Shown here: in pieces, positions 1 to 16,852 of the stretch | Numbering within the stretch: position 1 is the first letter of the stretch | Layout: each line of letters opens with the position of its first letter | Source of the DNA: a virus | Lineage: Duplodnaviria; Heunggongvirae; Uroviricota; Caudoviricetes | Virus record (IMG/VR): IMGVR_UViG_643692022_000009 | Direction: 5' to 3' (one strand) | Length of the DNA: 17,418 nt | Made by a program: the position numbers and the translations under genes | Notes under the pieces: model-generated | Seen by the model: the letters and a program-made list of their open reading frames with translations, nothing else | Database searches by the model: none | What the model was told of the DNA's origin: nothing

Positions 1-792
1 ATGCCAATAAATGGAGTCAGTGCTGCGATGCGCGAACGGGTATCGCAGCAATTAAAAGAAATAGAACGTCGCTATGGCGTGAAAGTGCTGTACGCCTGCG
101 AATCGGGGAGTCGCGGTTGGGGATTTGCCTCTCCCGACAGCGACTACGATGTACGATTTTTGTATGTTCACCCGCTGGAATGGTATCTGCGGGTGGAGGC
201 GCCGCGCGATGTTATTGAGTTGCCTATTGACGACGAGTTAGATGTTTCAGGCTGGGAGTGGCGCAAGGCGCTGGGATTACTGAAAGGAGCGAATCCGACG
301 CTGATAGAATGGCTGGATTCTCCGGTGGTCTATCAACAAGATGAAGAAACGATAACGCCGCTTAAGGCAATGGTGCCGAAGTGGTTTTCTCCGCTGCGTG
401 CGCGTTGGCATTATTATTCGATGGCGCGGAAAAACTTTCGCGGTTATTTGCAGGGCGACGTAGTTCGGCTGAAAAAATACTTTTACGTGCTGCGACCACT
501 ACTGGCTGTGCGTTGGGTTGAAGCGGGAAAAGGCGTACCGCCAATGCGCTTTGCCGAGTTACTGGCGGGAAGCGAGCTTGATGCACCGTTACGTGCAGAA
601 ATAGACGAACTGCTGGAACGTAAACAGCGCGCGGGAGAAGCGGAATATGGTCCGCGCCGTCCTTTGTTACATGCGTTTATTCGTGTGGAACTGGCGCGTG
701 GGGAAATTCCACCAGTGTTACCGGACAGCAGGGACGGAGATGCCAGGGAACTGGATGGGTTGTTGTATCAAACAGTGATACGCCGGGCGTGA
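1..792 (+). CDS. Pol-beta superfamily nucleotidyltransferase (263 aa); N-terminal NTase fold plus C-terminal helical domain. The ORF begins exactly at the window edge, so the true start may lie upstream.
   Basis: Translation contains the hG[GS]-x(9-13)-Dh[DE]h signature of Pol-beta-type nucleotidyltransferases: 'LYACESGSRGWGFASPDSDYDVRF'. Uninterrupted 263-codon ORF with typical enterobacterial GC content. Confidence 0.6.
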   Translation: MPINGVSAAMRERVSQQLKEIERRYGVKVLYACESGSRGWGFASPDSDYDVRFLYVHPLEWYLRVEAPRDVIELPIDDELDVSGWEWRKALGLLKGANPTLIEWLDSPVVYQQDEETITPLKAMVPKWFSPLRARWHYYSMARKNFRGYLQGDVVRLKKYFYVLRPLLAVRWVEAGKGVPPMRFAELLAGSELDAPLRAEIDELLERKQRAGEAEYGPRRPLLHAFIRVELARGEIPPVLPDSRDGDARELDGLLYQTVIRRA

Positions 793-821: not shown

Positions 822-1550
822 TTACCGAAGAGAATATTTGAGCTGTTTAAATTTGCTGCAGAGTGTGTTTTTTATGCTGAAACCTGGAACCCAGTGGAGA
901 GCTGTGTTCCAGGGACGAGGTGAACCGTGAAAACATACAATTTTTGCATCCGATGGCAATTCTCCGTTTGCTTTACCATCGTGTAAGTCAGGATTAAAGC
1001 CTATCATTTTAGGCGTCGCTATATTCGCTTTGTAACTGATAATTTGTCCTGGAAAAATATCCTGCCATCTTTCAGCGTCATGACATACTCTGCCGATAAA
1101 TCCCTGATCCCCATGATATGGCGGCTTTCTGGTTGAATTTATTTCAGTTTCAGGCGATCTCATAAACTCTTCCCAGACAAGTTTTTTGGCGTCCGCAGGA
1201 ATGAACATTATTCCAGTCGCAGGAGCAGCATTGGAACCATGCTGCGAGAAGTCGTTCAGTAATGTTACTTTTTTCATTTTAGTAAACTGTGTAATATCAC
1301 CGACGATTACAGTATCAATATCAATATAAAGTATATCTTCATTCCCGATAACAGGATGTTCGGGATTAAATAGCTCTAATTTTGCCCACCATCCTGGCCA
1401 ATTATACAGTAATGGAGTGGTTTGAACCCCTTTGATTTCTGAAGCATCCGTCATGCAAATGGAATTATACCCATCCAGCTGCTGGTGAAGCCATTGTGCA
1501 TGTTTAATAGTGAAATCCTTACTTTGTCTGAGAACTGAGACAATAAACAT
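822..1550 (-). CDS. GT8-family-like (GT-A fold) glycosyltransferase, 242 aa, encoded in an AT-rich block
   Basis: Translation has a DxD motif in GT8-like context ('ILYIDIDTVIVGDI') and a C-terminal 'CFHGSPRPW' resembling the H-x-x-G-x-x-KPW motif of GT8 enzymes (LgtC, WaaJ, glycogenin type). GC content is clearly lower than in the neighbouring tail genes. The ATG is preceded by AGGGA on the minus strand. Confidence 0.5.
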   Translation of the reverse strand: MFIVSVLRQSKDFTIKHAQWLHQQLDGYNSICMTDASEIKGVQTTPLLYNWPGWWAKLELFNPEHPVIGNEDILYIDIDTVIVGDITQFTKMKKVTLLNDFSQHGSNAAPATGIMFIPADAKKLVWEEFMRSPETEINSTRKPPYHGDQGFIGRVCHDAERWQDIFPGQIISYKANIATPKMIGFNPDLHDGKANGELPSDAKIVCFHGSPRPWNTALHWVPGFSIKNTLCSKFKQLKYSLR

Positions 1551-1730: not shown

Positions 1731-1758
1731 CTGATTAAAGCCGGGCTTGAAGCCCGGC
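1731..1758 (-). terminator. Candidate intrinsic terminator at the end of the tail operon (8-bp stem GCCGGGCT / AGCCCGGC, followed on the minus strand by UUUAAU)
   Basis: Perfect inverted repeat at 1740-1747 and 1751-1758, located 6 nt downstream of the stop of the 151-aa ORF (1764). The U-tract is short and interrupted. Confidence 0.35.
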
Positions 1759-1763
1759 GTAGT

Positions 1764-2219
1764 TTATGGTTGATATTGCCAACTGTTAACTAAAGCGTAC
1801 AAGTGGTTTGGGGAATAGCGCCAACTTTCTTTTAATTGCAGAAATTCGGCACAAAATTCGCTACAAAACAGGCGATCGCGCTGTTCTTTATTGCCGGTGA
1901 TAATTCCTAAGGCTCCACGCCAGTCGTATTTTTTGCCATCATGTTTACGGAAAAAAGCTTCTACATCCTGAAGGCTGACCTGGAGCGGCAGCATATCCCA
2001 CTTGTCTGGCGGTAAAGGCATTATCTTTCCACGAACGCCGCGATCGCGCAGAGAGGCGGAGTAACAAAGGTAACTCTTTTCTCCATGTGCTACGGCTAAT
2101 TCACAGTGGGAATAACTGCCGCGAGTGATTTTGCGTGTAAGCCAGTCAGCCAGTCTCGCAATAACCCGGTGCTCTGTTCGCCCTTTATAGCAAGCGAGCC
2201 AGACTGTAGTTTTACTCAT
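1764..2219 (-). CDS. Hypothetical 151-aa protein, translationally coupled to the tail-fibre assembly gene; possible permuted papain-like (LRAT / NlpC-P60-type) fold
   Basis: Its ATG overlaps the TGA of the upstream Tfa gene (ATGA, 2216-2219). Normal GC content. Contains 'YSHCELAVAHG' and a C-terminal 'FCSEFCAEF', reminiscent of the His...NCEHF arrangement of permuted NlpC/P60 enzymes. The fold assignment is from motif recall only. Confidence 0.6.
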   Translation of the reverse strand: MSKTTVWLACYKGRTEHRVIARLADWLTRKITRGSYSHCELAVAHGEKSYLCYSASLRDRGVRGKIMPLPPDKWDMLPLQVSLQDVEAFFRKHDGKKYDWRGALGIITGNKEQRDRLFCSEFCAEFLQLKESWRYSPNHLYALVNSWQYQP

Positions 2220-2923
2220 GGTTGCCAGCCTGTTGAATAATCGTAGTCGAGTACCGACTGAATATCGTCCAGAGCTTCCACCGCCGCGATATGGCGTTGG
2301 GCGTTGGCAAACAAGCGTATATCGTGATCCATTGTGACGGATTCAAACTGGGCAGCGATTTCGTTGGTTAACTCAGTCAGACCATTATTTTTAGTTTTCC
2401 ACATTAAACCTGGCGGAATTTTTTTCTCCGCTCCCATTTTTGTGAGTGAGAGTTGTTGGATGCGGCTGCTTGTATCACTGTGGAAGTAATTGTCGTTGAT
2501 GATGATGTAGTCGGTAGTGATGGAGTCGCGCAATGTTTTGATTTCGGCACATTTCGCCTGTTTAGCATCATCAATTGATGGCTGCCATTTTTCGCCATCC
2601 CAACGCTCAAAAGTACTGGTAGGGGAAATGATGGTGACAGTTTCAGGCAATTGACCCAATTTATTAATAATAATCTGGCTGCCATCAACTTTGTTATAAA
2701 CAGTTTGGCCTCGATGATCTTCAATAAGTTCCCATTTATTAATTGACCATATAGAAGTAAAACCTGCAATTTTTTGTGGTGGTGGTGTTAATGTGCAGTA
2801 ATTCGGTAGTCCAGTGTTTGGTGCTATATATACATTGGACTCACCAATAAATTCTTGTGTGTCTGGTGAAAAATTAAAAACAGATAAAATTTGTGCGTTA
2901 TCGGAAAAAGTAAAAGTATTCAT
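2216..2923 (-). CDS. Tail-fibre assembly protein (Tfa chaperone family), 235 aa
   Basis: N-terminal region ('[33 protein letters not shown]...[12 protein letters not shown]') matches the conserved N-domain of enterobacterial Tfa proteins. Its ATG overlaps the tail-fibre stop (ATGA, 2920-2923). The C-terminal half is divergent, as expected for a fibre-specific chaperone. Confidence 0.8.
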
Positions 2924-4500
2924 GCAAGCCTCACAATATAATTGAATGCAATGTTTTTAACAGTATTTTCTGTATTGCCAGTGTTATTGATGATAATTGA
3001 GTGATTATGTGTACCTAACACAATATTATGTGTATGACTTCCCAGTGCGATTGTATGTGCATGGGCGCCAATCGTAATACTATGATAATGACTACCAGCA
3101 GACTCAGTAGGTTCTCTGTAGTTCTCATCTGAATTGGGGCTGTTCCATAAAGACGGTCCATCTTTACCTTCTGCACCATCAGTTGGTATTCGGTGTGTAT
3201 GTTCTCCAGATGTGCTTGTATTTCTACTTCCATGATTAAATGAAGCTGTAGTTTTTGTTCCTAAGTCCGTAGAGGTAGATGTTATTGTCCCTAAATTGGT
3301 ACTAGAAATACTGCCCGTATGGTTATGTGATTTAACTCCATCCAGTTCAGTAGATAATATAGCGCGCCCACTGGATGGTTTTCCTTTAATTATCCATCCG
3401 CGCATATCAGGAATAACGCCAGATGGATATGCAATTGCCAGTTTGGGATAGGAGGTTTTATTAAATGTCTGACCAGTCATCAGAGCGTAGCCTGAAGGTA
3501 CAGAATCAGATGGCCAGGGTATAGGCATCCCTACAGGACAGCTTTCCGCAGCAATAGCCTTATCCATCGCTGCCTTAACCGCGTTCGGCGTTGCAGCTTC
3601 CGTCGTACTGGTGCTGTTGGTCGCATTATTAAGTTTCACGACCCCTTTTTGTGTCAGCGTACCGTCGGGGATACCTGTTATTTGCCCCCAGGCATGGGTA
3701 TGGCTGGACGGTGCCGCAGCAATAGCCTTGTCCATCGCTGCTTTAACAGCACTTGGCGTTGCAGCTTCCGTTGTACTGGTGCTATTTGTTGTGTTGTTAA
3801 GTTTAACGACTCCTTTCTGCGTCAGTGTACCATCAGGGATACCAGTAATCTGACTCCAGGCATGATTATGACTGGTGGCAGCTTTGCTATTTGCCAGGTC
3901 ATATGCCGTTTTTACCGCTTTTGGCGTGGCCGCTTTGGTTTCATCATCGCTATTAGTCGCATTACTCAGCTGCGTAAAACCTTTTTGTGTCAGCGTCGCA
4001 TCAGGATGATTTCGTGATTGCTGATGTGTTTTCAACGCGTCATCGACATATTCCCTGGTTGCCACAACGACTGAAGGGTCGATCAAAAGCGTCACCGCAT
4101 CTGCATTGGTGACTTCCATGACCGCGCGTATAACGATTTGCTTACTGGCCCCCGCAGGTAATCGTGGCTTATAGGTTTCAGGGATTTTTCCGATAGCGAC
4201 CAGCGTGCCGTCGGTATCCAGTAACCCAACTTCGCGTACATACCAGCCTCCGACTTGTTCGGGAATAATCGCTTCCGCGATAACCCAGGCCGGATTATCT
4301 GGCGCAATTTTTAACGTATTGAGCTGACCACGCCAGACCTCATGGACTACTTTAGTCTGACTTTCTGTCGGTTCGATATATTTACCATTACCGTCGCCAA
4401 CTACCATAGTTTGCAGACGGATCTGTTTTTGCTCCGTCAATGCAGAGGCAATTTTGGCTTTGCCTGCAGTAGTTAATATTGTAAAAAATTCACTTGCCAT
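2920..4500 (-). CDS. Tail fibre protein (P2 gpH / Mu S-like N-terminal anchor, central collar repeats, His-x-His C-terminal tip), 526 aa from the ATG at 4500
   Basis: From '[22 protein letters not shown]...VGDGNGK...HEVWRGQLN...[33 protein letters not shown]' the N-terminus closely parallels P2 gpH. GGAGGAATA lies just upstream of the ATG at 4498-4500, which overlaps the gpI stop (TAATG). The ORF track extends 42 codons further upstream to 4623, but that ATG lies inside gpI. The C-terminus carries HxH repeats. Confidence 0.85.
3548..4010. repeat. In-frame tandem coding repeats inside the tail-fibre gene: two near-identical 168-nt (56-aa) units plus a diverged third copy
   Basis: Units beginning 'gcagcaatagcct' at 3548 and 3716 (period 168 nt) encode 'HAW[S/G][44 protein letters not shown]'. 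A degenerate copy ('[37 protein letters not shown]') lies at about 3884-4010. These are the phage tail-fibre collar repeats. Confidence 0.85.
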
Positions 4501-5234
4501 TATTCCTCCGGATATACAGACATAATTTCGGTGCTCCAGTATCCTGTGCCGACCTTCATCGGTTGGGATTGTGTAAGGCGATCGGGTTGATAAGGTAGTA
4601 GTTGGATATATTCCTCCACACAATAACCCGTCGCTAAAAATATTCCTGATGACTGGCTGAGGCTTTCTGCAACAGGAGGCAATACTGTAATGACTTCCCC
4701 TCCTTGCATGGCGCTGCCAATAACTGGTATTGGGCTTCGATTAATAAGCCAAATAACAATGCTTTCCAGCTTTGAACGAACATTTTTATATTCATGAATT
4801 AATGTGATAAGTGCATTGAATTCATCTTCATTTAATCCTTTTTCCTCTAGTGTAATATTTACCTTAAAAAAATAAGCCCTTCCCCCATATTCAAACCATT
4901 CTGAAATAGTTCCGGGTAAGGAAAGTATTTCCAGCACCCGCCGTACCGCCCAAATTGTTCCTTTATATTTATGCAGTTCAATGGCTTGTTTAATTAACTC
5001 GCGCTTCTCCCGCTCATCGGTGGTAAATAACCAACCTTCCAGCCCCTGAACGTGAAATTGTTCTGCAAGGGCTGGTAATGCCGAAGCATCAACCAGGTCG
5101 ACCAGATAAACCATCAACGCCGTCAGATCGAGTTGGGCAAAACGCTCGGCGGCGATGTTTGCCAGAATCGAAAAACGCTCATCGCTGGCAAGCGGCGGCG
5201 GTGGCAGCAATTTATCCATCGCTGACTCCGGCAA
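4500..5234 (-). CDS. Baseplate / tail protein I (P2 gpI family)
   Basis: N-terminal '[13 protein letters not shown]' and overall pattern match gpI-family proteins; it sits between gpJ and the tail fibre as in P2 and R-pyocin clusters. The true start may be the internal Met (MDKLLPPP, 5219); both candidate starts overlap the gpJ 3' end. Confidence 0.8.
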
Positions 5235-6327
5235 TCGTGACGTCTATTGCAGTGCATTCCGCCCATTCATGCGCCTGCAAAATACGTTTTGTAGGCATAT
5301 TCAGCGCAACGTCATAGACGCCATCGACCTGTAACACTTTGATTATCTGGTTTGGCACAATGTCCTGCCCCAGATGTTTCTGCCGCTGTTGCGTCCAGAG
5401 GCTAATCGCTTTACGCGCCGCAGCCAGCGTTGTCTCCTGATCGGCGGTGGTAAACAGCGTTAGCTGAGCACGGATCTCATACGGCACTCGAAGAGCGCAT
5501 TTCGCACTCACTTTGTCGGTCAGCGGACGTTTTTTCTCCTTGCTAACCTCCTGTTCGATTTGCGCGAGCAGTTCTGTTCCCGGCAGTCCGTTCAGGGTTA
5601 GCGGGTAGATCTCCACGCAGCCTTCTGGCAATCCCTCGTCCGGCCCCAGTACTGCAACGTCAATAATCGACTGGCTAACAGAAAGCGTATGAAAGCGGTA
5701 TGCGCCATAGCTGCCCGCATTACTAAAGCTTTCTGGTGCCAGTTGGATACGCTGGCGCAATGCGTCATCGCTCTCCTCACCGCAGCCGCCCGTTGACGCA
5801 GTCAGGTTAGTTACGTTGATGTCATAATGACCCATCCTGTCGACCAGTGCGCTAATTTGTGCAGGCTGCCAGCCGTTGCCCTGTTCACCTGCTGCGAGGC
5901 TGGTGGCAGGAACGGCGATATGCAAACTCCTGGCCGGAAGCAGAACATCTTCATCGGTGGCGAACATCACGCTATCAGAGGCACTGGCCCGCGTCCCCTG
6001 GGGAATCAGGATATTGCTGGTATACGCACTGACGACCGAAAACTGCAACGTCGTTTTTGCAGGCTGCGCAGGCAAACGGTGAACGCCCACCAACTCCCCT
6101 AAATAATCCAGCATTGGCGCGCGGGAATACGCGACCAGGTTTTGTTTCGCCGCTTCCTGAATGGCGATGCGTACAAGGTTTTCACGATAGGCAAACAGGT
6201 CGATGAGCAACCGCTCAGCCTGTGCCGGATAGAGTTTTTTACCACTGGCATCTTCGTATTGCGCAATCATCTCACTGGTAATTTGCGCAGGATCGCGGTC
6301 AATAAAATTGGGTTCGGCTATCGCCAT
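5212..6327 (-). CDS. Baseplate assembly protein J (P2 gpJ / T4 gp6-like wedge), 371 aa
   Basis: Size and position (W-J-I order) with gpJ-like composition; start overlaps the gpW 3' end by 10 nt. Confidence 0.8.
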   Translation of the reverse strand: MAIAEPNFIDRDPAQITSEMIAQYEDASGKKLYPAQAERLLIDLFAYRENLVRIAIQEAAKQNLVAYSRAPMLDYLGELVGVHRLPAQPAKTTLQFSVVSAYTSNILIPQGTRASASDSVMFATDEDVLLPARSLHIAVPATSLAAGEQGNGWQPAQISALVDRMGHYDINVTNLTASTGGCGEESDDALRQRIQLAPESFSNAGSYGAYRFHTLSVSQSIIDVAVLGPDEGLPEGCVEIYPLTLNGLPGTELLAQIEQEVSKEKKRPLTDKVSAKCALRVPYEIRAQLTLFTTADQETTLAAARKAISLWTQQRQKHLGQDIVPNQIIKVLQVDGVYDVALNMPTKRILQAHEWAECTAIDVTIAGVSDG

Positions 6328-6677
6328 AACACCTCCGTTGAGTTGATAACGCCGTCAGCGGCGCGCCATTGCACACGTAACGTCAGATGTTCGCCGTCGA
6401 TTACTGGTGTCAGCTTCAGCAACCGACAGCGCGGTTCCCACTGGCGGATGGCTTCCACCGACTCCCGTACCACATGCGGGATTGCCCGCTCGATGGGGTA
6501 ATCGATGTAGTGCCACAAGTTGCTGCCAAACAGCGGTCTGTGGGGATCACTGCCGCGCGGTGTACGCAGAATGATGTGTATTGCCTGGTGAATATCATCC
6601 AGCCCGCAGACGTATTCTTCAGGCCGCTGCAAGGCCGGTTGCCAGTGCAGCGTTGAGGGTCGTGTTTTTGTGTTCAT
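6318..6677 (-). CDS. Baseplate wedge protein W (GPW / gp25 lysozyme-like family), 119 aa
   Basis: Size of about 120 aa immediately upstream of gpJ; sequence consistent with the GPW/gp25 family. Confidence 0.75.
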   Translation of the reverse strand: MNTKTRPSTLHWQPALQRPEEYVCGLDDIHQAIHIILRTPRGSDPHRPLFGSNLWHYIDYPIERAIPHVVRESVEAIRQWEPRCRLLKLTPVIDGEHLTLRVQWRAADGVINSTEVLWR

Positions 6678-6737
6678 GAGGGTATTTTCGCCCTGAACGG
6701 GCTGTGGCGATATTAAAGCGATTTAGAAAACTGATTG

Positions 6738-6770
6738 ATTAAAAAGAGAAAACCCGCCATCAGGCGGGTT
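6738..6770 (-). terminator. Strong intrinsic terminator between spike gene V and wedge gene W
   Basis: Minus-strand transcript reads AACCCGCC-UGAU-GGCGGGUU (perfect 8-bp GC-rich stem at plus 6751-6758 and 6763-6770) followed directly by UUCUCUUUUUAAUC. The hairpin starts 5 nt after the gpV stop (6776). Confidence 0.6.
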
Positions 6771-6775
6771 AAACG

Positions 6776-7477
6776 TCAGTGTGTATGGTGGTTGGAGTTG
6801 CCACCGCTGTCCTGCAATGCGCCGCTGGCCTGAACGTTGCCGATCACGTTGACATTGCCAGTTATCGTGGCGGCGTTACCGATGCCTCCACTTCCTGCCA
6901 TCCCGCCAAGCCAGGTGAGTTTTTTCATTACCGTGACGTTGCCAGTAAAGGTGCTCATGGGCGCATCTACCGTCACTGCTGCCGCTTTAACATCGACCTT
7001 AGTGGCGTCGATGCTGACATCGGTCGCTTTAACATCGACAGTATCGGAAGTCACGATGACCTGTTGGGCTTTAATCTCAACGTTGGGTGATGTCAGGCGG
7101 GTACTGTCGATAACCTCAATCACGATTTTCTCGATACCGCCGTTAATCGTCAGCTGGTGCGTGCTGCGGTCATATTCAAACGCTGCGCCATCAGAAAACT
7201 GGACGTAACGTTTATCGCGCGAGGCCACAGGCGCGGTGTCAACCGTAGAATAAACTGCGCCCAGCACCACGCCATCTTCACCGTTATTGTCCAGCAGAAC
7301 TTCCACTTGCTCGCCCATATCCGGTAGCCAGTAGTCTTTATTGTCCTGGGAATTGCGTTGAAGTACCGCAAGCCAGTTGCTCTTCAGATTGTCACACTCC
7401 GGGAGCGTGACCCGCACCCGAACGCTGGTTTCGTCAATATCGATGATAATCCCCGTTTGCCGGGTTACTCCTTTCAT
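6776..7477 (-). CDS. Baseplate spike / assembly protein V (P2 gpV family), 233 aa, with Gly-rich His-terminated C-terminus
   Basis: Position directly downstream of gpD and sequence character of gpV-family spikes; C-terminus '...GGMAGSGGIGNAATITGN...NSNHHTH' fits a metal-binding apex. AGGAGGAAATATG-type RBS upstream. Confidence 0.75.
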   Translation of the reverse strand: MKGVTRQTGIIIDIDETSVRVRVTLPECDNLKSNWLAVLQRNSQDNKDYWLPDMGEQVEVLLDNNGEDGVVLGAVYSTVDTAPVASRDKRYVQFSDGAAFEYDRSTHQLTINGGIEKIVIEVIDSTRLTSPNVEIKAQQVIVTSDTVDVKATDVSIDATKVDVKAAAVTVDAPMSTFTGNVTVMKKLTWLGGMAGSGGIGNAATITGNVNVIGNVQASGALQDSGGNSNHHTH

Positions 7478-7486
7478 ATTTCCTCC

Positions 7487-8527
7487 TTACTGGCTGGTCG
7501 CTGGCCCGCGCGACACGTCGATTTCAGTGGTATAGCCGCTGCGCACAAAACTGTGAGTAGATTTATCAATTAGCCATTGACCGGAAAGCACGCCAAAATC
7601 GGTTAGCTCGATTTTATTGCCCGCCGTCAGTTCCGGGCAGCCCATCATTGTGAGCGTTCCGGTTTGCTGATATTCGTTGTGGCTGTCGAGTGCAGCGTTG
7701 GCTTTTGCCTGTGCTGCGCCAACGTCCGTCGCCCGACTGTTCAGTTTTAGCGTGTCGGCACTGGTGCCGACTCCACGGGCAGACGGTTTTTGCTGGCTGT
7801 CGTGGGTGTAGATAACCAGTTCTTTTTTCTTACTATTTTGATGCTGTACGGTGGCGTTTTTGTAGATACGGTTAATGGTATCTTTGAAGGTGAAATGCGA
7901 AACGTCTTTGCGGTCGATCGTTTTTACCGGTGCCAGGCAGCGCAGCGTGGGTAAATGTGAAAAAATCAGCTCTTTTGTCGTCACTTTTACGGCATAACCA
8001 TATTCACTGGCCAGACGTTTGAGAAATCCGACATCGGTTTCACCATACTGCGTTACCCGGTCGATGGTGAGCGGCTCGATTTTGCCCACCAGTTTCAGAC
8101 CGTGCGTTTGGGCGATACGGCTGGCGATAGCCGAAAGCGTCGTTTCTTCAAAGCCCTGGCTGTTACGGGTGCGCAGCGCCTGATTGACGGAAGTGGCGAT
8201 GCCATCAATATTTACCGTGGAAGGTGGCGCTGAAATATCAATTTTATCAATAATATATTGACCACAATCGAGCAGTTTTTCCCCCTGATAACCCATATGC
8301 AGCGCCAGCGTATCGCCTTTGCCGGGATACCACTCTTTTATCCAGCGTCCATCGGTGTCATCCAGTGTAATCGCGATGGTATCCGACTCGTTTTTAATAC
8401 TGTCCTGGTAACTGATGCTGGTGACATAAGGCGTGATGTCATAAGTGATATCTTTATGCCCATACCAGAGGGTAAAAATGGGCGCGAGCGTGGCAAAGAC
8501 GCCGCCAGTTACGCTTATCTCAGCCAT
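7487..8527 (-). CDS. Tail protein D (P2 gpD late-control-D family baseplate hub), 346 aa
   Basis: Size and position (U-X-D order as in R-type pyocin and P2-like tails); gpD-like N-terminus. Confidence 0.8.
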   Translation of the reverse strand: MAEISVTGGVFATLAPIFTLWYGHKDITYDITPYVTSISYQDSIKNESDTIAITLDDTDGRWIKEWYPGKGDTLALHMGYQGEKLLDCGQYIIDKIDISAPPSTVNIDGIATSVNQALRTRNSQGFEETTLSAIASRIAQTHGLKLVGKIEPLTIDRVTQYGETDVGFLKRLASEYGYAVKVTTKELIFSHLPTLRCLAPVKTIDRKDVSHFTFKDTINRIYKNATVQHQNSKKKELVIYTHDSQQKPSARGVGTSADTLKLNSRATDVGAAQAKANAALDSHNEYQQTGTLTMMGCPELTAGNKIELTDFGVLSGQWLIDKSTHSFVRSGYTTEIDVSRGPATSQ

Positions 8528-8727
8528 GGTGGGAGCTCCGATACGGTTTTGTTGACGGAAATGACCGGAATGATGAGCTGAATACCGGAAGGTAGTACCG
8601 GGTAAATGGCGACATGTGGATTGGCGGCGATAATGCGTTCATAAGCCAGCGCATCGCCATAGTAATGCCATGCCAGATTATCCCAGCGTTCGCCGTCGGT
8701 GGTGATATGTTCAAGGTATCGCATCAC
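8515..8727 (-). CDS. Tail protein X (P2 gpX family, LysM-like), 70 aa
   Basis: A 70-aa protein with 'DGERWDNLAWHYYGD...IIAANPHVAIYPVLPSGIQLIIPVI' parallels gpX ('GDTLD...RYYG...AANP...LP.G..L.IP'). Start overlaps the gpU-like stop (ATGA). Confidence 0.75.
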   Translation of the reverse strand: MMRYLEHITTDGERWDNLAWHYYGDALAYERIIAANPHVAIYPVLPSGIQLIIPVISVNKTVSELPPWLR

Positions 8728-9677
8728 CAGCTCCTCGTAATGGTTGCGGCAGCAAACTGACTCACTGCTGGAGTGGTTCGTTGTACCGTTGTTCGTGCCT
8801 GATCAACCAACGTTGCTGCTTTATCAAACGTCGTTTCGGCGATGTCGCTGGTAATGTCATCGAAAAGCGCCTGAGCATGGTCAACCAGCGTACTGGCGTC
8901 ATTGGCGCAGTCCCGGATACCTGGCATGTTACCCAGTAAAGCTTTAATCTGCGCCGACAACGCTTTTGGGAGTCCTGCCAGCGTTTGCAGATCCATCGGC
9001 TGTATAAACAGGGTTTCGATGGCGTCGATTGTCTTTTTCAACGACGTAATTATCTTTTCACACTTTTCTTTTAACGCTTTGGCCTCTTTAATCAGTGCTT
9101 TCACTTTTGCCACTGTTTTTTTAATATCTTCAATGGATTGCGCCAGTTCATCGAGCATCTCTTTGGCTTTGCGCATACCTTCTTCAATGGCGTTCAATAT
9201 CTGATCTAACCAGGACTCCTCCTTATTCGGAAAATCGCTCGCCTTTTCCTCGATATTAGGCTCCTGGGTGGTAATTGCCGGGGGCAGCAGTGGGTTTTTC
9301 GGATCGCCGGTATACTCCTGGAGCGACATTGTTCCACTTTGGGCAATCACATTGCCCCAGGGATCGGTGTGCTGGTGAGTGGCGGTTAACTCTGTAATTA
9401 CAAACCAGCCGCGATAATCTCCGTTGCCAAACACCAGCGCCATTGCTTTGTGGGCGAGCATGGCTTCACGCAGTCGATTCAGCTCTGTTGTGGGTTGGCA
9501 AAACTGGCTGTGCAGGGAAAATTCCAGCGCCAGCATATCCAGCTTATCGCCAATAAACTGTACGCCAGGTTTGCCTTCAATACGGGCATGTGTGGCGTAA
9601 TCCACGCCCATTGTGCTCTTAAAGCCATCCCAGAACGTGACAACTTTAAATTCAATCTCTCCTAAAACGGCATACAT
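8724..9677 (-). CDS. gpU-like tail terminator domain fused to a roughly 190-aa C-terminal coiled-coil-rich extension (317 aa total)
   Basis: N-terminal 'MYAVLGEIEF...RIEGKPGVQFIGDKLDMLALEFSL' parallels P2 gpU ('MMLALG...F...RIGKRDAFQFLGVGEENITLAGVL'). The C-terminal half is K/E/A-rich with heptad-like periodicity. Start overlaps the tape-measure stop. Confidence 0.7.
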   Translation of the reverse strand: MYAVLGEIEFKVVTFWDGFKSTMGVDYATHARIEGKPGVQFIGDKLDMLALEFSLHSQFCQPTTELNRLREAMLAHKAMALVFGNGDYRGWFVITELTATHQHTDPWGNVIAQSGTMSLQEYTGDPKNPLLPPAITTQEPNIEEKASDFPNKEESWLDQILNAIEEGMRKAKEMLDELAQSIEDIKKTVAKVKALIKEAKALKEKCEKIITSLKKTIDAIETLFIQPMDLQTLAGLPKALSAQIKALLGNMPGIRDCANDASTLVDHAQALFDDITSDIAETTFDKAATLVDQARTTVQRTTPAVSQFAAATITRSW

Positions 9678-12052
9678 CAGGCATACCCCCGGCGCTGCTG
9701 CTGCGCCATTACATCGTTAATCATTCTTTCCAGTTCGCGTTTACTCATCGTCAACACGTTCTGAATCTCTTTAGTGGTGTTTTGTCCGTTACCCTGCACG
9801 GTAATTTGTGGCGAAAAATTCACCTGAACTTTTCCTGAGGAACGGGAAGGTAGCGTCGCCGCTTTGGTTACGGATTTACCAGGTAAAGAGGCCGATGCTT
9901 GTTTGGCGGCTGTATTTTTTGCCGCTGATGCCGATGGTAGCGTTGTCGTTTTACTGGATGGCGCGAGTTGTTTCCCCACTGGAGGCGTTAAAATCGCACC
10001 GGCAACGCCTGGAACAACGGTCGTGGAGGAGACGGATGCGGTATTACTCGTGCTTGTAACAGCCGTAGCCGATCCTTCTGTACTAATACCCATCGTGGTT
10101 TTTAGCCAGTCCGGTAAGGCGTTTTTGATCTGGTCAATAATGCCTTTCAGAGCGGGGAAGGCATTTATTATGCCGTCAACCAGACTGCCCAGAAGATTGC
10201 TGCCGAACTCGCTAAAACTTGCAGGCATCTCGACACCAAACCAATTCATCACACTGGAAAAGGCGCTATAGAACAAAGCCAGCGGCGACCAGTCGAGAAT
10301 CAACCGGCAAATCCCTGCAATACCGCCGTCAAAGGCCGTGGTGATACGTTGCCAGATGGTCGAAAAGAACCTGGAGATAGGCTCCCAGTTGCGATAAATC
10401 AGATAAGCAGCACCCGCAATTGCGGTGATGACCAGGCCAATGGGATTCATCAATAAAACCCTACCCAACCAGAAGACGGTCTGACCTACCTGTTTCAGTG
10501 CGCCAATCAGGCCACGACCAAGCAGTTGCATTAGCCATTTTGCGCCGCCACCCAATGACTTAACCGCTGATAGCATCTTACTTGCCCCGCCTGTGAGCGC
10601 CAGACTTGCCTTGACTTTCAGGAAGATATCGACCAGACGAATAAACGGCGAGGTGATGAGGTTCGCGCCCAGCTTTAAAACATTCAGCGCACCGTTAAAC
10701 AGCCAAATCGCCCCGACGATTTTCGCGATGTTTTGCACCAGTGTCGGGTGCTCACGTAGCCAGGTGCTGAACTGACGAATAACCGGCGTAAGGCTTTGTG
10801 CCAGCTCGCCAATCAGCGGCATTAATTGCAAGCCAATGCTGAGCCATAAATCATTTAACGCCAGCTGTAACGCTTTAGTCTGTTCAATGGGCGAGGCCAT
10901 TTGCGCAGAAAAGTCGGCATCAATCAGATTCTTGCTGGTGGCTTGCATGGCAGAGGTTTTTAACTGGCGATATTCCTCCATATTCGCCAGCATAGGTGCC
11001 AGGAATTCCACCGTTTGCGCATCGCCGAACATTTCGCCCAGATTAAATTGCGTCACCATCGATTGCAGCGCATTGCTGCGAGCAGATAAATCTTCAATCT
11101 GCATAGTTCGTTTGAAGGTGTCGAGGATCGCCGGATTCATCTTCTCAAGCTGCATTTGTACGATATGAGTCATGGCTTCGCTAACACCCATACCGTTTTG
11201 CTGATGTTCAAGCAGAGAGCCTTGCAGATCGACGCCCTGGCTGGCGAACCAGTTATCGGTCTTTTTCGAAAAGGTGGTTTGCAGAAAGTGGTCGAAATTC
11301 TCCGCCGCCGCACTGGCGCTGGCTCCGTTTTTCATGGCGATCTGCATGGCGGCAGTCAGTTCAGCCATACCTTCCAGACCCTGAGCGCCGGTTTTACCTG
11401 CAAATTTGTCTATCCACAGCGTTTGCTCGGCAACGGCAGGCCCACCGCTTTTGCTAATGCCGTACATCATGTTTTGCGCGACGTGGAAATTTTCTGGCGC
11501 AATATTCAGTCGATCATGGGTTGCGAGCGCGGCATTCGCCCATGTTTCAGCACTTTCGCGCGTGGCGGTGGCAGCTTTGGCGATCTCCGGCATATAACGG
11601 TTGAGATCCTGTATCGACGACAAATTGCCTTCGATCAGCGTTTGGGCTGCGTTCTGTAAGGTGGTCTGATGCTGGTTAAAATCCATGCTCCAGTCGCGCA
11701 GATTAAGGCTGAGCGTCTCGCGAGTTGTATCATTCATCCCACCTTTGGTCGCCATATTGACCATGTTGTCCTGGAACTCATACGGCAACTTCCAGTCGGG
11801 GGCTTCAACATTGAATACTTTGCTAAATTGCCCGGCAAATGTGTGGGTTTTCTCCATCAGATTAGCGCGGCTGCGGCTATTTTCCTCCAGGCGGAGAGCG
11901 GAATCGGCAAGCCGCTGCGTTAGTTTGATAACTGTCGCTTGCTGAGTAGAGAGAGCTAACAATGTTCTGGCGTTGAGTGAGCCGTAACGGGCTATTGCCT
12001 GCGTCAACGTCTCATTACGCGCCTGAAGCTGGGTAATAATATCGTTGGCCAA
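9677..12052 (-). CDS. Tail tape measure protein, 791 aa
   Basis: Long alpha-helical protein with central hydrophobic segments and an S/T/A-rich low-complexity C-terminal region, located between the chaperone gene and gpU as in all P2/Mu-type tails. Confidence 0.85.
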   Translation of the reverse strand: MANDIITQLQARNETLTQAIARYGSLNARTLLALSTQQATVIKLTQRLADSALRLEENSRSRANLMEKTHTFAGQFSKVFNVEAPDWKLPYEFQDNMVNMATKGGMNDTTRETLSLNLRDWSMDFNQHQTTLQNAAQTLIEGNLSSIQDLNRYMPEIAKAATATRESAETWANAALATHDRLNIAPENFHVAQNMMYGISKSGGPAVAEQTLWIDKFAGKTGAQGLEGMAELTAAMQIAMKNGASASAAAENFDHFLQTTFSKKTDNWFASQGVDLQGSLLEHQQNGMGVSEAMTHIVQMQLEKMNPAILDTFKRTMQIEDLSARSNALQSMVTQFNLGEMFGDAQTVEFLAPMLANMEEYRQLKTSAMQATSKNLIDADFSAQMASPIEQTKALQLALNDLWLSIGLQLMPLIGELAQSLTPVIRQFSTWLREHPTLVQNIAKIVGAIWLFNGALNVLKLGANLITSPFIRLVDIFLKVKASLALTGGASKMLSAVKSLGGGAKWLMQLLGRGLIGALKQVGQTVFWLGRVLLMNPIGLVITAIAGAAYLIYRNWEPISRFFSTIWQRITTAFDGGIAGICRLILDWSPLALFYSAFSSVMNWFGVEMPASFSEFGSNLLGSLVDGIINAFPALKGIIDQIKNALPDWLKTTMGISTEGSATAVTSTSNTASVSSTTVVPGVAGAILTPPVGKQLAPSSKTTTLPSASAAKNTAAKQASASLPGKSVTKAATLPSRSSGKVQVNFSPQITVQGNGQNTTKEIQNVLTMSKRELERMINDVMAQQQRRGYA

Positions 12053-12141
12053 AATTGTTTCTCTTATAGATTGGTGATGGCCCGCTGGTTAGTTTTCTGA
12101 AAAATGGGCTGGGAAGAAATAAACCTGGCGGGCTTTGAAGA

Positions 12142-12166
12142 ACTCGCAGACATCAGGTCTGCGAGT
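12142..12166. other. Perfect 10-bp inverted repeat (ACTCGCAGAC / GTCTGCGAGT, 5-nt loop) in the chaperone to tape-measure gap
   Basis: Read directly from sequence. On the minus strand the hairpin spans the stop codon of an open +1-frame extension of the chaperone gene and is followed by UUCUUCAAAG (a poor U-tract). Possible attenuator or frameshift-associated structure. Confidence 0.4.
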
Positions 12167-12240
12167 CATATTCGATCTTTATTTGAGCGCTGGCTTCATC
12201 CAGCCAGTTGCTAAAGTCATCTATGGTGAGCGCGTCTATC

Positions 12241-12558
12241 TCACTGGGCGGAAAGCGAAACCATCTCGCCAGTAACGCCATCGCTTGCCATAACAGTGGC
12301 GGATTCTGTAGCCACGCTAAGCATGGATTGAAATCGTTTCTGCAATGCCTGGTAATCCAGCAAATCCATTTCAGCTAAATCTTCTGGCACCAGTCCGGTC
12401 ATTGCCGCCATTAGCGGTTCATCCCATTCTTCTGGTTTTTCGCTGATCCGGCGCGCGTTGCGCATATCTTTTACTTTCAGGCGACGTAATTGCAGCGTGT
12501 CGATATTATTTCCTGCTGCCGACGTAAATGGAAACTGCAAGATATAATGTTCTTTCAT
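12241..12558 (-). CDS. Tail assembly chaperone (P2 gpE-like), 105 aa
   Basis: Small acidic protein in the conserved slot between the tube and tape-measure genes; sequence pattern parallels gpE. A 189-nt gap follows before the tape-measure ATG, where an E-prime-type extension would be expected. Confidence 0.65.
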   Translation of the reverse strand: MKEHYILQFPFTSAAGNNIDTLQLRRLKVKDMRNARRISEKPEEWDEPLMAAMTGLVPEDLAEMDLLDYQALQKRFQSMLSVATESATVMASDGVTGEMVSLSAQ

Positions 12559-12608
12559 TTTGTGTCCTTATTTATTTTGCAAAGTTCGGGGCCGTAGCCC
12601 CGAATAAC

Positions 12609-13133
12609 TTAGCCACCGATGTTATTGCGATAGGTACTTAATTGATCCACACCATTAACCCGGAAAATATTGGCCATATAATCAAGTTCAAGCAGCGTTT
12701 CACCATCAACTACTTGTTTAATATAAGTGCAACCAAAGGCGCTGCTGAATTCCGGGTTTTCATTCTGTTTAAATGTGCCCAGTGGATTCTTTTTAAACAT
12801 CACGGTTAAATGTGTCACTAACGCTAATTGATTCGCTTTCCCCTGGGAGTTATAGCAATCAATACTGGAGCGGCACTGTAATGCCACCGCCTGCCACGGG
12901 TTTGCCGTTTTACGCATGACGTCCTGATAAAAGGAGTTCCATTTAATTTCGCCCTCCAGTTTATCGAAACCTGCCGGGAGTTCGATTTTGCCGACCATAC
13001 CCAGTGCCTTATGCTCTTGCATAATTAAACTGACATCCGGCAATTTAATTTCGGTTGCACGACCTAAAAGGTTATTACCATCGAGATAAATATTGGCGTT
13101 GGTAATACGGTTAATTTGAATTTTTCCAGCCAT
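12609..13133 (-). CDS. Major tail tube protein (P2 gpFII family), 174 aa
   Basis: Size and position immediately downstream of the sheath gene (start overlaps the sheath stop by 1 nt); tube-family sequence character. Confidence 0.85.
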   Translation of the reverse strand: MAGKIQINRITNANIYLDGNNLLGRATEIKLPDVSLIMQEHKALGMVGKIELPAGFDKLEGEIKWNSFYQDVMRKTANPWQAVALQCRSSIDCYNSQGKANQLALVTHLTVMFKKNPLGTFKQNENPEFSSAFGCTYIKQVVDGETLLELDYMANIFRVNGVDQLSTYRNNIGG

Positions 13134-14563
13134 TAGCTATTGCTCTCCAGAGAGACTAAATATTCAGAAGTAATTTCAGTTTCAAACGTCAGACGTTCCA
13201 GCGGCGGTGGCGGGGTGAATTTATAGCTCAGCAATAAATGCCCGGCGCTGAGTTCGGTCGGTGAATTTCGCGCCGGATCGTACCAGCACTCAAAGCCAAG
13301 CAGTGCGCCGTCGGCAATCAGCTTACGGCCCCAGGTATTTACCGATTCGGTCAGGGCATCAATCAGCGCCTGATTAATCGGCATATCAATATACTGCTGA
13401 CTGAAATAACGGATTGACTCATTAATTACATCGCCTGTCCGGCGGGCGTTTTCAAAGTTACGCATATGGGTCACGGTAGGCCATGCCGCTGTGCGGTTGC
13501 CCCACAAGCGCAGACCAGAGCCGTAACTATTGAAAATAGTGGTAATGCCGTTTTCGTTGAGCTGATTCACTTCGCTTTGAGGATCATCAATCATTGCGGA
13601 AAGCGAACGTTCAATACCGGTAATACCCTGAATTTCCTGGTTTGAGTTGCTCCACCAGAAACCTTTTTCGAGGTCTACTTTGGCACGTAGCCCGGCAGCG
13701 CGCGAAGAGAGCGGTTCGAGAACTTCCTGGTTAGTGATGCCATCGTAAACTTTGACGTGTGGGTAACATAAACGCGCACGATCAGAGCTGGTGTTGAAGT
13801 TGATAGCCCCTTGCGAACCGCGTCCTGCCAATACCTGCTGGAATGTCGTCCCAATCGGGGCATCAATGTAGGTAATCGCACCAAGTTTTTCCGCTTGTGC
13901 AATCAGCTCGGTAGTTACTGATTTTTGCGTACAGAACACGGGAGCAAGCAGGATTTTGGCGTAGAAACCATACAGGTTATAGGTGTCCTGTAGCAGTTTC
14001 ATCCCCGTGCGATCGCCTGCGGTATTAACGGCACCGATAATATCGGCTGCGGTGACCTTTGTAGGGTCGCACCAGGAATAATAGGCGCAAACTTTCGCAC
14101 CAGGAGGAATGTCGGCTCCTGTACGGGTAATTATGCCTGTTTGTTCATCTACGCTAAATGCTGCGGTGTTATAGGTTGATGAATTTGATGAAGAGGGCTT
14201 TAGAACCACGTTACGCACATTGCGGTGAGCGAGTTTCGCCTGGTTGTTAGCGTCAAAAGTGATACTCTCATTGCTGATGTTGGAGCCATGTTTTGCCGGA
14301 TCCAGCACGTTAATCACCACCACCGTACCGGCACCGTGGTCATAAATCGCCTTCAGTGCCTGCGGGATCGTAAAGTTAGCCTGAGTCGAACCAAACTGCG
14401 CAGCATCGCTTTCAGAAAGGCATAATGTTGGTTTATTTACCGGACCACAGGGGGCCGTACCGATTAAAGCGATGACGGCGGATTTTACCGCTTTAACCGG
14501 ACGCGGGCCGGTTTCAATTTCAATGGTTTCTACACCGTGCAGATAATTAGCTGCCATGTACAA
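13133..14563 (-). CDS. Contractile tail sheath protein (P2 gpFI / Mu L family), 476 aa
   Basis: N-terminus 'YLHGVETIEIETGPRPVKAVKSAVIALIGTAP' is the conserved sheath start (compare P2 FI 'YHHGVQVLEINEGTR...'). Size is typical of sheath proteins. Confidence 0.9.
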   Translation of the reverse strand: MYMAANYLHGVETIEIETGPRPVKAVKSAVIALIGTAPCGPVNKPTLCLSESDAAQFGSTQANFTIPQALKAIYDHGAGTVVVINVLDPAKHGSNISNESITFDANNQAKLAHRNVRNVVLKPSSSNSSTYNTAAFSVDEQTGIITRTGADIPPGAKVCAYYSWCDPTKVTAADIIGAVNTAGDRTGMKLLQDTYNLYGFYAKILLAPVFCTQKSVTTELIAQAEKLGAITYIDAPIGTTFQQVLAGRGSQGAINFNTSSDRARLCYPHVKVYDGITNQEVLEPLSSRAAGLRAKVDLEKGFWWSNSNQEIQGITGIERSLSAMIDDPQSEVNQLNENGITTIFNSYGSGLRLWGNRTAAWPTVTHMRNFENARRTGDVINESIRYFSQQYIDMPINQALIDALTESVNTWGRKLIADGALLGFECWYDPARNSPTELSAGHLLLSYKFTPPPPLERLTFETEITSEYLVSLESNS

Positions 14564-14744
14564 TTTCCTCTCCGTTATTTTGTTCTTCCTGAGTGATGAC
14601 AGGTGTCAGATGATTGCGGGCAATCATGGTCATGACCCACTCGTTGTCTTCTGGCAGATCAATTTCACTGTTCGGCCACAATAAGATTTCTTGTCCGTCG
14701 GCAAGGGTGACGCCGCTTGCCGGGCCGTTGTAGATGTATTTCAT
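14547..14744 (-). CDS. Small conserved phage protein (65 aa), possibly Mu gp38-like (DUF2635-type)
   Basis: Tightly packed between the upstream ORF (ATGA overlap at 14741-14744) and the sheath gene (17-nt overlap), matching the small ORF that precedes the sheath gene in Mu-like tail modules. The family assignment is from memory and not verified. Confidence 0.35.
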   Translation of the reverse strand: MKYIYNGPASGVTLADGQEILLWPNSEIDLPEDNEWVMTMIARNHLTPVITQEEQNNGEEIVHGS

Positions 14745-15196
14745 TCAGTTTCCTCGTAATTAACTTCAGTAAGCAGGGTAAGGTCCGTGCTTTCCCGTTT
14801 CGCGATAAACAGCGAGCTGGTCGCCATTTCCAGGATGTAGCGGCAGAAACCACCGCTCTCGCCTGCATTGATTTCTTTTTCAAGCCAAAGAAGACGCTCG
14901 CAATCAGGAAGCTGGATCCCCCCCAGTGCGCTGCGTATGCGGTCCAGTGCGTTTAACGCGTCACAATTTTTGCCAACAATAACGGTGGCAGTTAAACGGA
15001 GCGTTTGCTGTTGCACGAGAGCATCACTGCTTTCAGACATGGCAAATAGAGAACCGCTATAATTAATAATCACTGTAACTTGCTGCGTCTGCGGAATATA
15101 TTTATGGGCATCAACCGATGAAATAGATACATCCATTTCGGGATTCTGTTCACATAATCTGGTCACAACAGAATTCATTACTGATAAAATTTCCAT
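14741..15196 (-). CDS. Hypothetical tail-module protein, 151 aa; candidate tail completion / terminator-type protein (Mu gp37-like by position)
   Basis: Uninterrupted ORF with AAGGGA 8 nt upstream of the ATG, co-oriented with and immediately upstream of the sheath operon. No diagnostic motif recognised. Confidence 0.35.
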   Translation of the reverse strand: MEILSVMNSVVTRLCEQNPEMDVSISSVDAHKYIPQTQQVTVIINYSGSLFAMSESSDALVQQQTLRLTATVIVGKNCDALNALDRIRSALGGIQLPDCERLLWLEKEINAGESGGFCRYILEMATSSLFIAKRESTDLTLLTEVNYEETE

Positions 15197-15313: not shown

Positions 15314-15628
15314 TTAATAGCTACCGCGTTGTAATAGCTCTATTTTGCTATATAAGGCATCCAGCTTTGCTTCTAATACTGCCTGGCCACGAAGATAATC
15401 TTCTCTGCGGACATAATGCAGCGGAAGCTCGGCACGAAATTCGAGAAATTCTCTTTCCAGTTTCGACCAGTTTGTTTCTGATTCCCGGCGCGCGTTTTCC
15501 AGAGATTCAAAACGCTCATTAAGTCTTTTTTCAATTTGCGCTAACAGCAATTTTCCGGCAGCAAACATTAATCCAACGAAGGAAAGCATAAGGGAGATCA
15601 CTTCCCAAAAATCGATACTGAGTTTCAT
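15314..15628 (-). CDS. Membrane-anchored coiled-coil protein, 104 aa; candidate i-spanin or other lysis accessory protein
   Basis: N-terminal hydrophobic segment ('VISLMLSFVGLMFAAGKLLL') followed by a charged helical region with heptad character; located 12 nt downstream of the lytic transglycosylase gene. No o-spanin lipoprotein partner was identified. Confidence 0.45.
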   Translation of the reverse strand: MKLSIDFWEVISLMLSFVGLMFAAGKLLLAQIEKRLNERFESLENARRESETNWSKLEREFLEFRAELPLHYVRREDYLRGQAVLEAKLDALYSKIELLQRGSY

Positions 15629-15640
15629 CGGCCCCTCTGA

Positions 15641-16246: not shown

Positions 16247-16248
16247 CA

Positions 16249-16832: not shown

Positions 16833-16852
16833 TACTGTATGTGTATACAGTA
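16833..16852. promoter_or_regulatory. LexA (SOS) box, TACTGTATGTGTATACAGTA
   Basis: Matches the E. coli LexA consensus TACTGTATATATATACAGTA (CTGT-N8-ACAG) at 18 of 20 positions, differing only at two central, weakly conserved positions. It lies in the divergent AT-rich intergenic region between the Mor-like gene and the lysis/tail operon. Confidence 0.65.

Follow-up and report, generated by a model that had tools for sequence, protein, structure and literature searches.

The stretch of DNA analysed here (the window) comprises 17,418 nucleotides of the IMG/VR virus record IMGVR_UViG_643692022_000009 and is 98-99.8% identical to Escherichia fergusonii assemblies. It carries a cluster of contractile-tail genes, in which positions 2920-4500 of the minus strand encode a tail fibre of 526 amino acids (aa), as determined from open reading frames (ORFs) and inspection of the sequence. 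The fibre gene follows immediately on gpJ and gpI, which encode the baseplate wedge, as in the P2 gpH-type arrangement. By Pfam, its upstream neighbours are Tail_P2_I (4500-5234) and Baseplate_J (5212-6327), and the gene downstream encodes Caudo_TAP and DUF4376 domains. The longest ORF (2920-4623) opens with TTG, and the ATG at position 4500, which has GGAGG ahead of it, was taken as the true start. This ATG shares one nucleotide with the gpI stop codon (TAATG), and the fibre stop codon (2920-2922) overlaps the ATG of the downstream chaperone gene (ATGA). Public databases hold the identical protein on 62 contigs under the name 'phage tail protein [Escherichia fergusonii]', and one member of the fibre cluster in UniRef is named 'Short-chain fatty acid transporter'. 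A megablast comparison of the fibre and chaperone genes with phage genomes gave zero matches, and relatives were found only through protein-level searches. The fibre and the chaperone contain the following features.

2920-4500, minus strand: tail fibre gene, 526 aa (PF12571, three PF03406 and PF07484), with translational coupling to both neighbours, gpI on the upstream and the chaperone gene on the downstream side.
4054-4500, minus strand: P2 gpH-type baseplate anchor, aa 1-149 (PF12571 Phage_tail_fib, E 8e-59).
3877-4044, minus strand: first shaft repeat, aa 153-208, diverged (PF03406 at aa 169-208; 46% aa identity to the other two repeats; match to Mu fibre S, 5YVQ, E 2e-6).
3709-3876, minus strand: second shaft repeat, aa 209-264, beginning with SHNHAW (Tandem Repeats Finder, repeat search and codon-register alignment).
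3541-3708, minus strand: third shaft repeat, aa 265-320, beginning with SHTHAW; its end, AVKAAMDKA, is the tip-exchange junction.
3331-3546, minus strand: collar or knob, aa 319-390, corresponding to T4 gp37 D10 residues 811-881 (PF07484 at aa 324-370, E 1e-10; alignment with 2XGF).
3193-3330, minus strand: descending needle strand, aa 391-436, with His-x-His (HxH) motifs at 392-394 and 434-436; the middle HxH of T4 (GHTHS) is changed to FNHG.
3109-3192, minus strand: head or tip subdomain, aa 437-464, hypervariable, not alignable with the E. coli allele and predicted to contact the receptor.
2974-3108, minus strand: ascending needle strand, aa 465-509, with four HxH motifs in a 9-residue register (aa 471, 480, 489 and 498), the His residues being invariant in 26 sequences.
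2920-2973, minus strand: conserved C-terminal strand returning into the collar, aa 510-526 plus the stop codon (alignments with 2XGF and with homologues).
2216-2923, minus strand: tail-fibre assembly chaperone, 235 aa, with a gp38/Tfa-like N-terminal domain fused to DUF4376 (PF02413 and PF14301).
2487-3546, minus strand: exchangeable AT-rich cassette of ~1.06 kb, fibre aa ~319-526 plus chaperone aa 1-~145 (unalignable with a second E. fergusonii allele, locus L095; low G+C at third codon positions).

This anatomy, with a tip and chaperone cassette that is exchanged as a unit, is a reading that we hold with high confidence. The fibre design itself is well known from the mosaic P2, Mu, lambda and T4 fibres, which recombine at conserved junctions.

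Aa 317-526 aligned with residues 25-242 of the T4 gp37 tip structure (2XGF_A) at E 5e-67 in a phmmer search of all PDB chains, and a profile built from 26 homologues matched 2XGF at E 4e-98. By tblastn, the tip and T4 gp37 share 56.5% identity over 207 aa, with a common succession of collar, HxH needle, head and returning C-terminal strand. Judged by sequence, the tip and the solved gp37 receptor-binding tip are truly homologous, and this goes beyond the mere gp37 likeness proposed in the original prediction. That prediction had also named gp12-type fibres. T4 gp12 gave no chain at E <= 1 among the PDB chains, with either the single sequence or the profile, and only a 554-aa 'Short tail fiber' (9CUY) matched the collar, so that homology to gp37 stood and homology to gp12 was undetectable by sequence. 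The known link between gp12 and gp37 is a shared collar fold only (PMC6957217).

In T4 gp37, the D10 knob or collar comprises residues 811-881 and 1010-1026, the stem residues 882-931 and 960-1009, and the tip subdomain residues 932-959 (PMC6957217). The T4 tip holds seven iron atoms, its residues H929 and H931 are essential, and gp38 is needed for gp37 folding (PMC6957217). In the fibre from the window, HxH motifs start at aa 392, 434, 471, 480, 489 and 498. The four C-terminal motifs of the original prediction are present as quoted, and two further ones lie upstream of them, at 392 and 434. These six are in register with six of the seven iron-coordinating HxH motifs of T4; the second T4 motif is the one replaced by FNHG, and five residues are deleted ahead of the fifth. 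Five of the motifs have invariant His residues in the alignment of 26 homologues, and in the sixth the conservation of His is 90% or more, whereas the head is hypervariable. The last 210 aa would thus fold like the T4 tip, with a collar followed by a six-stranded needle held by metal ions, which would be coordinated through the HxH motifs of three chains at six predicted sites, compared with seven in T4. The small hypervariable head at the distal end would contact the receptor.

Three observations weigh against this picture of the tip. One of the seven HxH motifs of T4 is lost. Of the T4 gp37 residues reported as critical (I933, N937, G938, G940, G942, G943, S947 and Y949; PMC6957217), about three of eight are matched in a gapless alignment, and the receptor cannot be inferred. 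Finally, an AlphaFold2 monomer model of aa 317-526 computed with the 26-sequence alignment was poor (mean predicted local distance difference test score 52.5, predicted template modelling score 0.20). Such a result is expected for an obligate intertwined, metal-bound trimer, and since the monomer model is poor, the fold similarity rests on sequence homology to 2XGF. The trimer and its metal binding are predicted properties. Compared with T4, the tip is grafted onto a 316-aa P2-type anchor and shaft and not onto the 1026-aa gp37. The head sequence is unrelated to that of T4, and therefore OmpC or lipopolysaccharide specificity cannot be assumed.

Related tips are found in P2-like phages (Peduovirus P24A7b, ESSI2) and other temperate phages (55-61% identity, tblastn) and in the lambdoid phage Chlobot, whose side tail fibre is 62.5% identical by tblastn and 61.5% identical over aa 314-526; lambda Stf matches aa 167-526 at 48% identity. 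More than 1200 protein clusters, mostly Escherichia prophage fibres, contain the tip at E <= 1e-10, and the module is therefore common. Lambda (Stf, orf-401/orf-314; Tfa, orf-194) and Chlobot share with the fibre the order of Phage_fiber_2 repeats followed by the same collar and needle tip, and carry a Tfa gene directly downstream of it. They differ in that the lambda fibre has another N-terminal attachment domain, for a siphovirus tail, and that Stf is an accessory fibre of an infectious phage. A scan of species-representative genomes did not return the E. fergusonii locus itself, and many of its matches in unrelated taxa were phage lambda DNA. Low-coverage contigs of ~48.4-48.5 kb (loci L024-L034 and L078; Pseudomonas, Shewanella, Neobacillus, Kitasatospora and others) were matched through the fibre, and over stf-tfa one of them (L027) matches phage lambda (J02459.1) at 100% identity. 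These contigs in unrelated assemblies very probably represent lambda DNA contamination.

The N-terminal anchor matched PF12571 with 198 bits (cut-off 23) across aa 1-149 of a 150-position model. Its identity to the fibres of P2-like phages is 44-48% (Wphi gpH ~44%), and to the fibre of the Salmonella counterpart described below 63%. The proposed parallel with P2 gpH thus stands at the family level, and the word 'closely' attached to it was an overstatement, because identity to P2-type gpH is only ~44%. The anchor would dock the fibre on the gpJ/gpI baseplate wedge.

The shaft contains three stretches of PF03406 (Phage_fiber_2, E 7e-52) with a unit period of 56 aa or 168 nucleotides (nt), the family unit being ~42 aa. 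Tandem Repeats Finder reported 2.0 copies with a period of 168 at 3546-3875 (82% matches), and a repeat search gave 83% identity across 162 nt, with a third copy at 74-77% across 57 nt. Aligned in codon register, the second and third repeats (aa 209-264 and 265-320) share 80% of their DNA and 87.5% of their protein sequence, and differ by 20 synonymous and 7 non-synonymous codons, the longest identical run being 17 nt. The repeats are real, old and kept by selection on the protein, and are not near-identical DNA: the two copies and the diverged third seen in the original prediction are all there, but at 80-83% DNA identity 'nearly identical' does not describe them. Nor are they the collar repeats of that prediction, since the units belong to the shaft family PF03406 and Collar (PF07484) is a separate single domain at aa 324-370. 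The three units, each bounded by SHxHxW, would form the shaft and set its length.

Among relatives, the number of 56-aa units varies from 2 to 7, and fibres of 470, 526 and 582 aa have the same tip type. The repeats had been suggested as a substrate for recombinational length variation. The copy number does vary, but with identical runs of at most 17 nt the repeats are a poor present-day RecA substrate, and active slippage was rejected on the same ground. The variation in repeat number is real but slow. The SHxHxW motifs at the repeat boundaries contribute HxH at aa 211 and 267, and in homologues they follow a strict 56-aa period (aa 211, 267, 323, 379 and 435) with up to six copies. Like the needle motifs, they may bind metal, which would add sites along the shaft. 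In the fibre from the window the motif (aa 209-214 and 265-270, given as window positions 3709-3726 and 3541-3558) falls outside the Pfam repeat model.

The gene immediately downstream is related to T4 gene 38. Its product showed 26% identity to T4 gp38 (aa 13-114 against gp38 aa 1-101, E 2e-10) and 44% identity to the Tfa of Chlobot (E 3e-35) in BLASTP. Over aa 3-134 it is 38-47% identical to the Tfa proteins of Chlobot, phiNP, P24A7b and JL22, whose genes lie directly downstream of gp37-type tips; a search of the PDB gave no significant match. In the structure of Mu Tfa, a variable N-terminal domain binds the fibre (as summarised in PMC9608196). By this likeness, the gp38/Tfa-like N-terminal domain would assist folding of the tip encoded next to it. 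Two features separate the system from T4: the chaperone has an additional DUF4376 domain, and a gp57A-like gene is absent from the island. DUF4376 forms the C-terminal half that is common to the other alleles of the island.

The original prediction described the 3' end of the fibre gene as AT-rich and as a swapped receptor-binding module. A sliding profile of G+C confirmed the former, with 0.31-0.42 at 2900-3400 and 0.48-0.53 at 3400-4300. At third codon positions (GC3), the tip (aa 317-526) has 0.27, compared with 0.45 in aa 1-316 (Fisher test, p = 5e-5) and 0.56-0.66 in the baseplate genes (Fisher test, p = 2e-17). The depression continues into the chaperone gene, with GC3 of 0.18 for aa 1-60 and 0.30 for aa 61-120, and ends there, the values beyond being 0.53-0.55.

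The swap was evident in the fibres encoded at the same locus. Homologues retain aa 1-~316 (99% identity for another allele of E. fergusonii, 91% for E. albertii, ~70% for Salmonella), and past AVKAAMDKA continue into unrelated C-termini, which are gp37-type or end in SWYTVGQL, GAWRTISG or GFVKISW (PF21722). The second E. fergusonii allele (L095, SWYTVGQL tip) aligns with the window at 97.5% over 3546-10500 and at 92.6% over 1740-2487, and is unalignable exactly over 2487-3546; its chaperone has 217 aa and lacks the Tfa-type N-terminal domain. For this reason we regard the tip and the chaperone domain as one exchangeable cassette: the swapped unit goes past the fibre gene and takes in part of the chaperone gene. 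The gp37-type tip of E. coli LWY24 has another head; the LWY24 locus aligns with the window at 96.3% over 3206-13499 and at 85% over 1740-3085, with the head region (3085-3206) unalignable.

A trivial explanation of the low 3' G+C would be that it is a by-product of the Ser/Thr/Asn/His/Ile-rich composition of the needle and does not mark a foreign, exchanged module. The needle is indeed compositionally odd, and the G+C of the T4 tip (0.457) is above that of T4 gene 38 (0.339). However, the drop is strongest at synonymous third positions, extends into the unrelated domain of chaperone aa 1-120, and coincides both with the tract replaced in the second allele of the same species and with a jump in synonymous divergence (dS). 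This explanation is largely refuted, and we give it hardly any credence. The jump itself is seen against E. coli, where dS is 0.58-0.73 for the tip, the chaperone and the last gene of the fibre operon (orf151) and 0.01-0.30 for the backbone. Together with a ratio of non-synonymous to synonymous divergence (dN/dS) of 0.27 for the tip against E. coli LWY24, it points to an imported old allele and not to fast evolution in place. E. albertii has the same tip type and the same neighbouring genes. Its DNA identity is 87% over the tip block and 92% over the backbone, which indicates an old tip haplotype; a recent interspecies transfer of the block was considered and rejected on these values.

Recombination in two places, the conserved final part of the last shaft repeat (~3546) and the domain boundary within the chaperone (~2487), would exchange the cassette and so re-target the tail. 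For an invertible tip system of the Mu G or P1 C type, only one 15-nt imperfect inverted repeat was found in the gene, and no recombinase is encoded among the window ORFs, all of which are accounted for. In this respect the island differs from P2 and Mu (gpH/gpG and gpS/gpU), as it has neither an invertible segment nor a Gin/Cin-type invertase and is diversified by allelic cassette replacement. It shares with these phages the PF12571 anchor adjoining gpJ and gpI and the Phage_fiber_2 shaft, and with Mu a fibre region solved in Mu S (5YVQ matches aa 155-214) and the two-domain logic of Tfa, in which the N-terminal domain binds the fibre tip. The anchor is just ~44% identical, and the tips are unrelated.

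The genes surrounding the fibre and its chaperone form an island without head genes, with the following features.

1764-2219, minus strand: orf151, last gene of the fibre operon, with an ATGA overlap with the chaperone gene (phrog_1128; homologue STM4198; dN/dS 0.04).
4500-15196, minus strand: contractile tail genes for a Gp37-family protein, sheath, tube, chaperone, tape measure, gpU-like protein, X, D, V, W, J and I (Pfam; also in relatives).
15314-16536, minus strand: lysis cassette of holin (16249-16536), SLT transglycosylase (15641-16246) and a 104-aa lipoprotein-like protein (15314-15628).
16833-16852, no strand assigned: perfect LexA (SOS) box TACTGTATGTGTATACAGTA in the divergent control region that separates the holin and Mor genes.
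17074-17418, plus strand: Mor-family transcription activator, divergent from the lysis/tail operon (PF08765, E 4e-38; homologue STM4219).

The contractile-tail set is complete and intact in the window, from the sheath through I to the fibre and Tfa. The search for a LexA box gave one match where 0.00 would be expected by chance. The box recurs at the corresponding place in E. coli (L003, 25661-25680) and in Salmonella (L010, 3655-3670), where it reads CTGTATATATATACAG. A promoter-like element on the minus strand (TTTACA-16-TACAGT, 16861-16834) overlaps the box and is directed at the lysis/tail operon; it is the sole sigma-70-like site in the region.

The E. fergusonii sequence CP042945.1 encodes identical fibre and Mor proteins. 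There, Mor is followed by a zeta-toxin-domain gene, lysC and pgi, and the other flank carries RlaP, slipin, yjbD and rluF. The same lysC-yjbD position is occupied in 196 of 5426 complete E. coli genomes, with the arrangement of E. fergusonii, and by the Salmonella counterpart STM4198-STM4219. In E. fergusonii, E. coli and Salmonella, no capsid, terminase, packaging, replication or integrase genes were found at the locus. STM4200 of Salmonella Typhimurium is the orthologue of the fibre, with ~70% identity in anchor and shaft, and its island has the same order of Mor, LexA box, lysis, tail, fibre and chaperone genes. The fibre tip of serovar Infantis SARB27 is also gp37-type (56.5%). Most Salmonella alleles differ in having another tip (PF21722, ending in GFVKISW) and 4-6 repeats, and gtrABC lies between gpV and gpW.

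The head-less chromosomal island with its own holin and lysin genes, Mor and LexA box makes the fibre likely to be the specificity determinant of a tailocin. R2 pyocin, carotovoricin and P2D1 are likewise clusters for head-less contractile tails with their own lysis genes. They are under DNA-damage-linked control, as the island would be through its LexA box, and the fibre and chaperone of R-type tailocins are a polymorphic specificity module exchanged by recombination, as would be the case in the island. Unlike R-type pyocin clusters, the island has a LexA box and Mor and not PrtN/PrtR, and its fibre has a gp37-type needle tip and not the lectin-fold knob of the pyocins. We consider it probable that the complete explanation applies, namely that a trimeric receptor-binding fibre of a P2/Mu-type contractile tail, mosaic in structure and carrying an exchangeable cassette, would serve as the specificity determinant of an SOS-induced R-type tailocin. 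For the tailocin role of the island as such, gene content tips the balance only a little in favour, and SOS induction, particle release and killing are predicted from the same genes.

The same genes could belong to a decaying Mu/P2-like prophage remnant, whose fibre would look intact but have no function and whose mosaicism would only record past recombination. Mobility and head genes are absent, as expected of such a relic, and several further observations tell against an active device. The island is decayed in some E. fergusonii strains, with a DDE transposase/insertion sequence in gpI in one (L008, 8796-9776) and gene calls that lack the sheath and Gp37-family genes in another (L093, 4685-6242). 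Its occurrence in just 196 E. coli genomes and the insertion of gtrABC within the Salmonella tail operon would also suit a relic, and the promoter-like site taken alone is non-significant (1 found, 2.7 expected in shuffles). The E. coli fibre (L001, 9705-11285, and L002) is annotated by RefSeq and the Prokaryotic Genome Annotation Pipeline as two 'incomplete' pseudogene fragments. However, the flagged 526-aa ORF is uninterrupted, and the pseudogene call looks like an annotation artefact of a mosaic gene. In addition, all genes show strong purifying selection, with dN/dS of 0.02-0.24 in comparisons with E. coli as well as with Salmonella, dS being saturated (~1-2) in the latter, whereas stop codons would be expected throughout a relic so old. 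Conservation also extends to the LexA box, Mor and the lysis genes, and the overlapping start and stop codons are retained. A domesticated SOS-inducible R-type tailocin fits these dN/dS values better than a decaying prophage does, and we consider the relic unlikely.

Another possibility is that the cluster supplies tails to separately encoded heads, in the manner of a helper/satellite system or a gene-transfer agent, in which case the fibre would direct DNA delivery and not killing. A Mu Gp37-family protein (PF09646) at the head-proximal end of the cluster speaks for it, and the sequence is compatible with tails joining heads made elsewhere. However, neither E. fergusonii nor E. coli nor Salmonella has head genes at or near the locus. 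The cluster also brings its own lysis cassette and stand-alone regulatory region, as in known tailocins, and we know of no partner element that encodes only heads. This arrangement appears very improbable.

Several genes for surface modification or stress-type functions adjoin the island. An insert at 801-1740 contains an ORF (822-1550, minus strand) for a glycosyltransferase-like protein of 242 aa (phrog_1962, G+C 0.40), which is 55.7% identical to the product of the gene adjoining stf-tfa in Chlobot. None of the 196 E. coli islands has the insert, nor does E. fergusonii L095; E. albertii (L094) has it, together with the same tip type. From this linkage, the ORF may be a receptor-modifying self-protection gene associated with the tip. 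In Salmonella Infantis SARB27, the genes between gpV and gpW (L010, 13823-16976) form a gtrA/gtrB/gtrC-like O-antigen glucosylation operon (STM4204-4206), and a hexapeptide acetyltransferase gene (22165-22641) follows the orf151 homologue. The placement of these Salmonella genes indicates that surface-modifying genes recur beside the island. The fibre-side flank in the window (1-792) encodes an RlaP nucleotidyltransferase and slipin (Band_7), which are defence-like or stress-type, as is the zeta-toxin-domain gene between Mor and lysC in E. fergusonii (L091/L092, 8517-9446), absent from E. coli LWY24. orf151 is kept in E. coli and Salmonella; it has no Pfam family, and phrog_1128 is labelled 'enoyl-CoA hydratase/carnithine racemase-like'. 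An NCBIfam scan of the fibre, the chaperone, orf151, the glycosyltransferase-like ORF and two small ORFs gave no family matches.

These genes invite a broader scenario, which is doubtful at present: a LexA/Mor-controlled tailocin would have resided at lysC-yjbD since before the Escherichia-Salmonella split, its cassettes would be old alleles shared across species, and the linked surface-modifying genes (ORF 822-1550, and gtrABC and the acetyltransferase in Salmonella) would give matched self-protection by altering the cell's own receptor.

Among the papers searched on tailocins of E. coli and Salmonella and on this locus, we found no characterisation of the island, of particles or of killing. 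In these papers STM4200 figures only as a Typhimurium-specific target for the polymerase chain reaction (PCR) (PMC6201931), and Salmonella loci of this type were classed as 'tailocin/phage' in one study and discarded. A paper on an 'ST131 tailocin' (PMC9205054) was rejected as a description of the island, as it concerns a different P2-like prophage region.

Relative to the original prediction, the analysis adds the bounds of the cassette, including the N-terminal domain of the chaperone, the six HxH motifs of the tip and the periodic ones of the shaft, and the island, a context more interesting than the fibre itself. The fibre is a clean natural case of the rule used in phage and tailocin engineering, in which an anchor, an adjustable shaft and a tip with its chaperone are recombinable, and its junctions are mapped: one (~3546) is where the last Phage_fiber_2 repeat ends, the other (~2487) where the two domains of the chaperone meet. 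Should the island prove to be an active, SOS-induced tailocin, an unstudied strain-specific killing device would be present in E. fergusonii, E. albertii, a few per cent of E. coli and most Salmonella. Its gp37-type tips could then be read like a serotype, STM4200 being already a serovar-specific PCR marker, and the island would offer a ready enterobacterial chassis for retargetable antibacterial particles.

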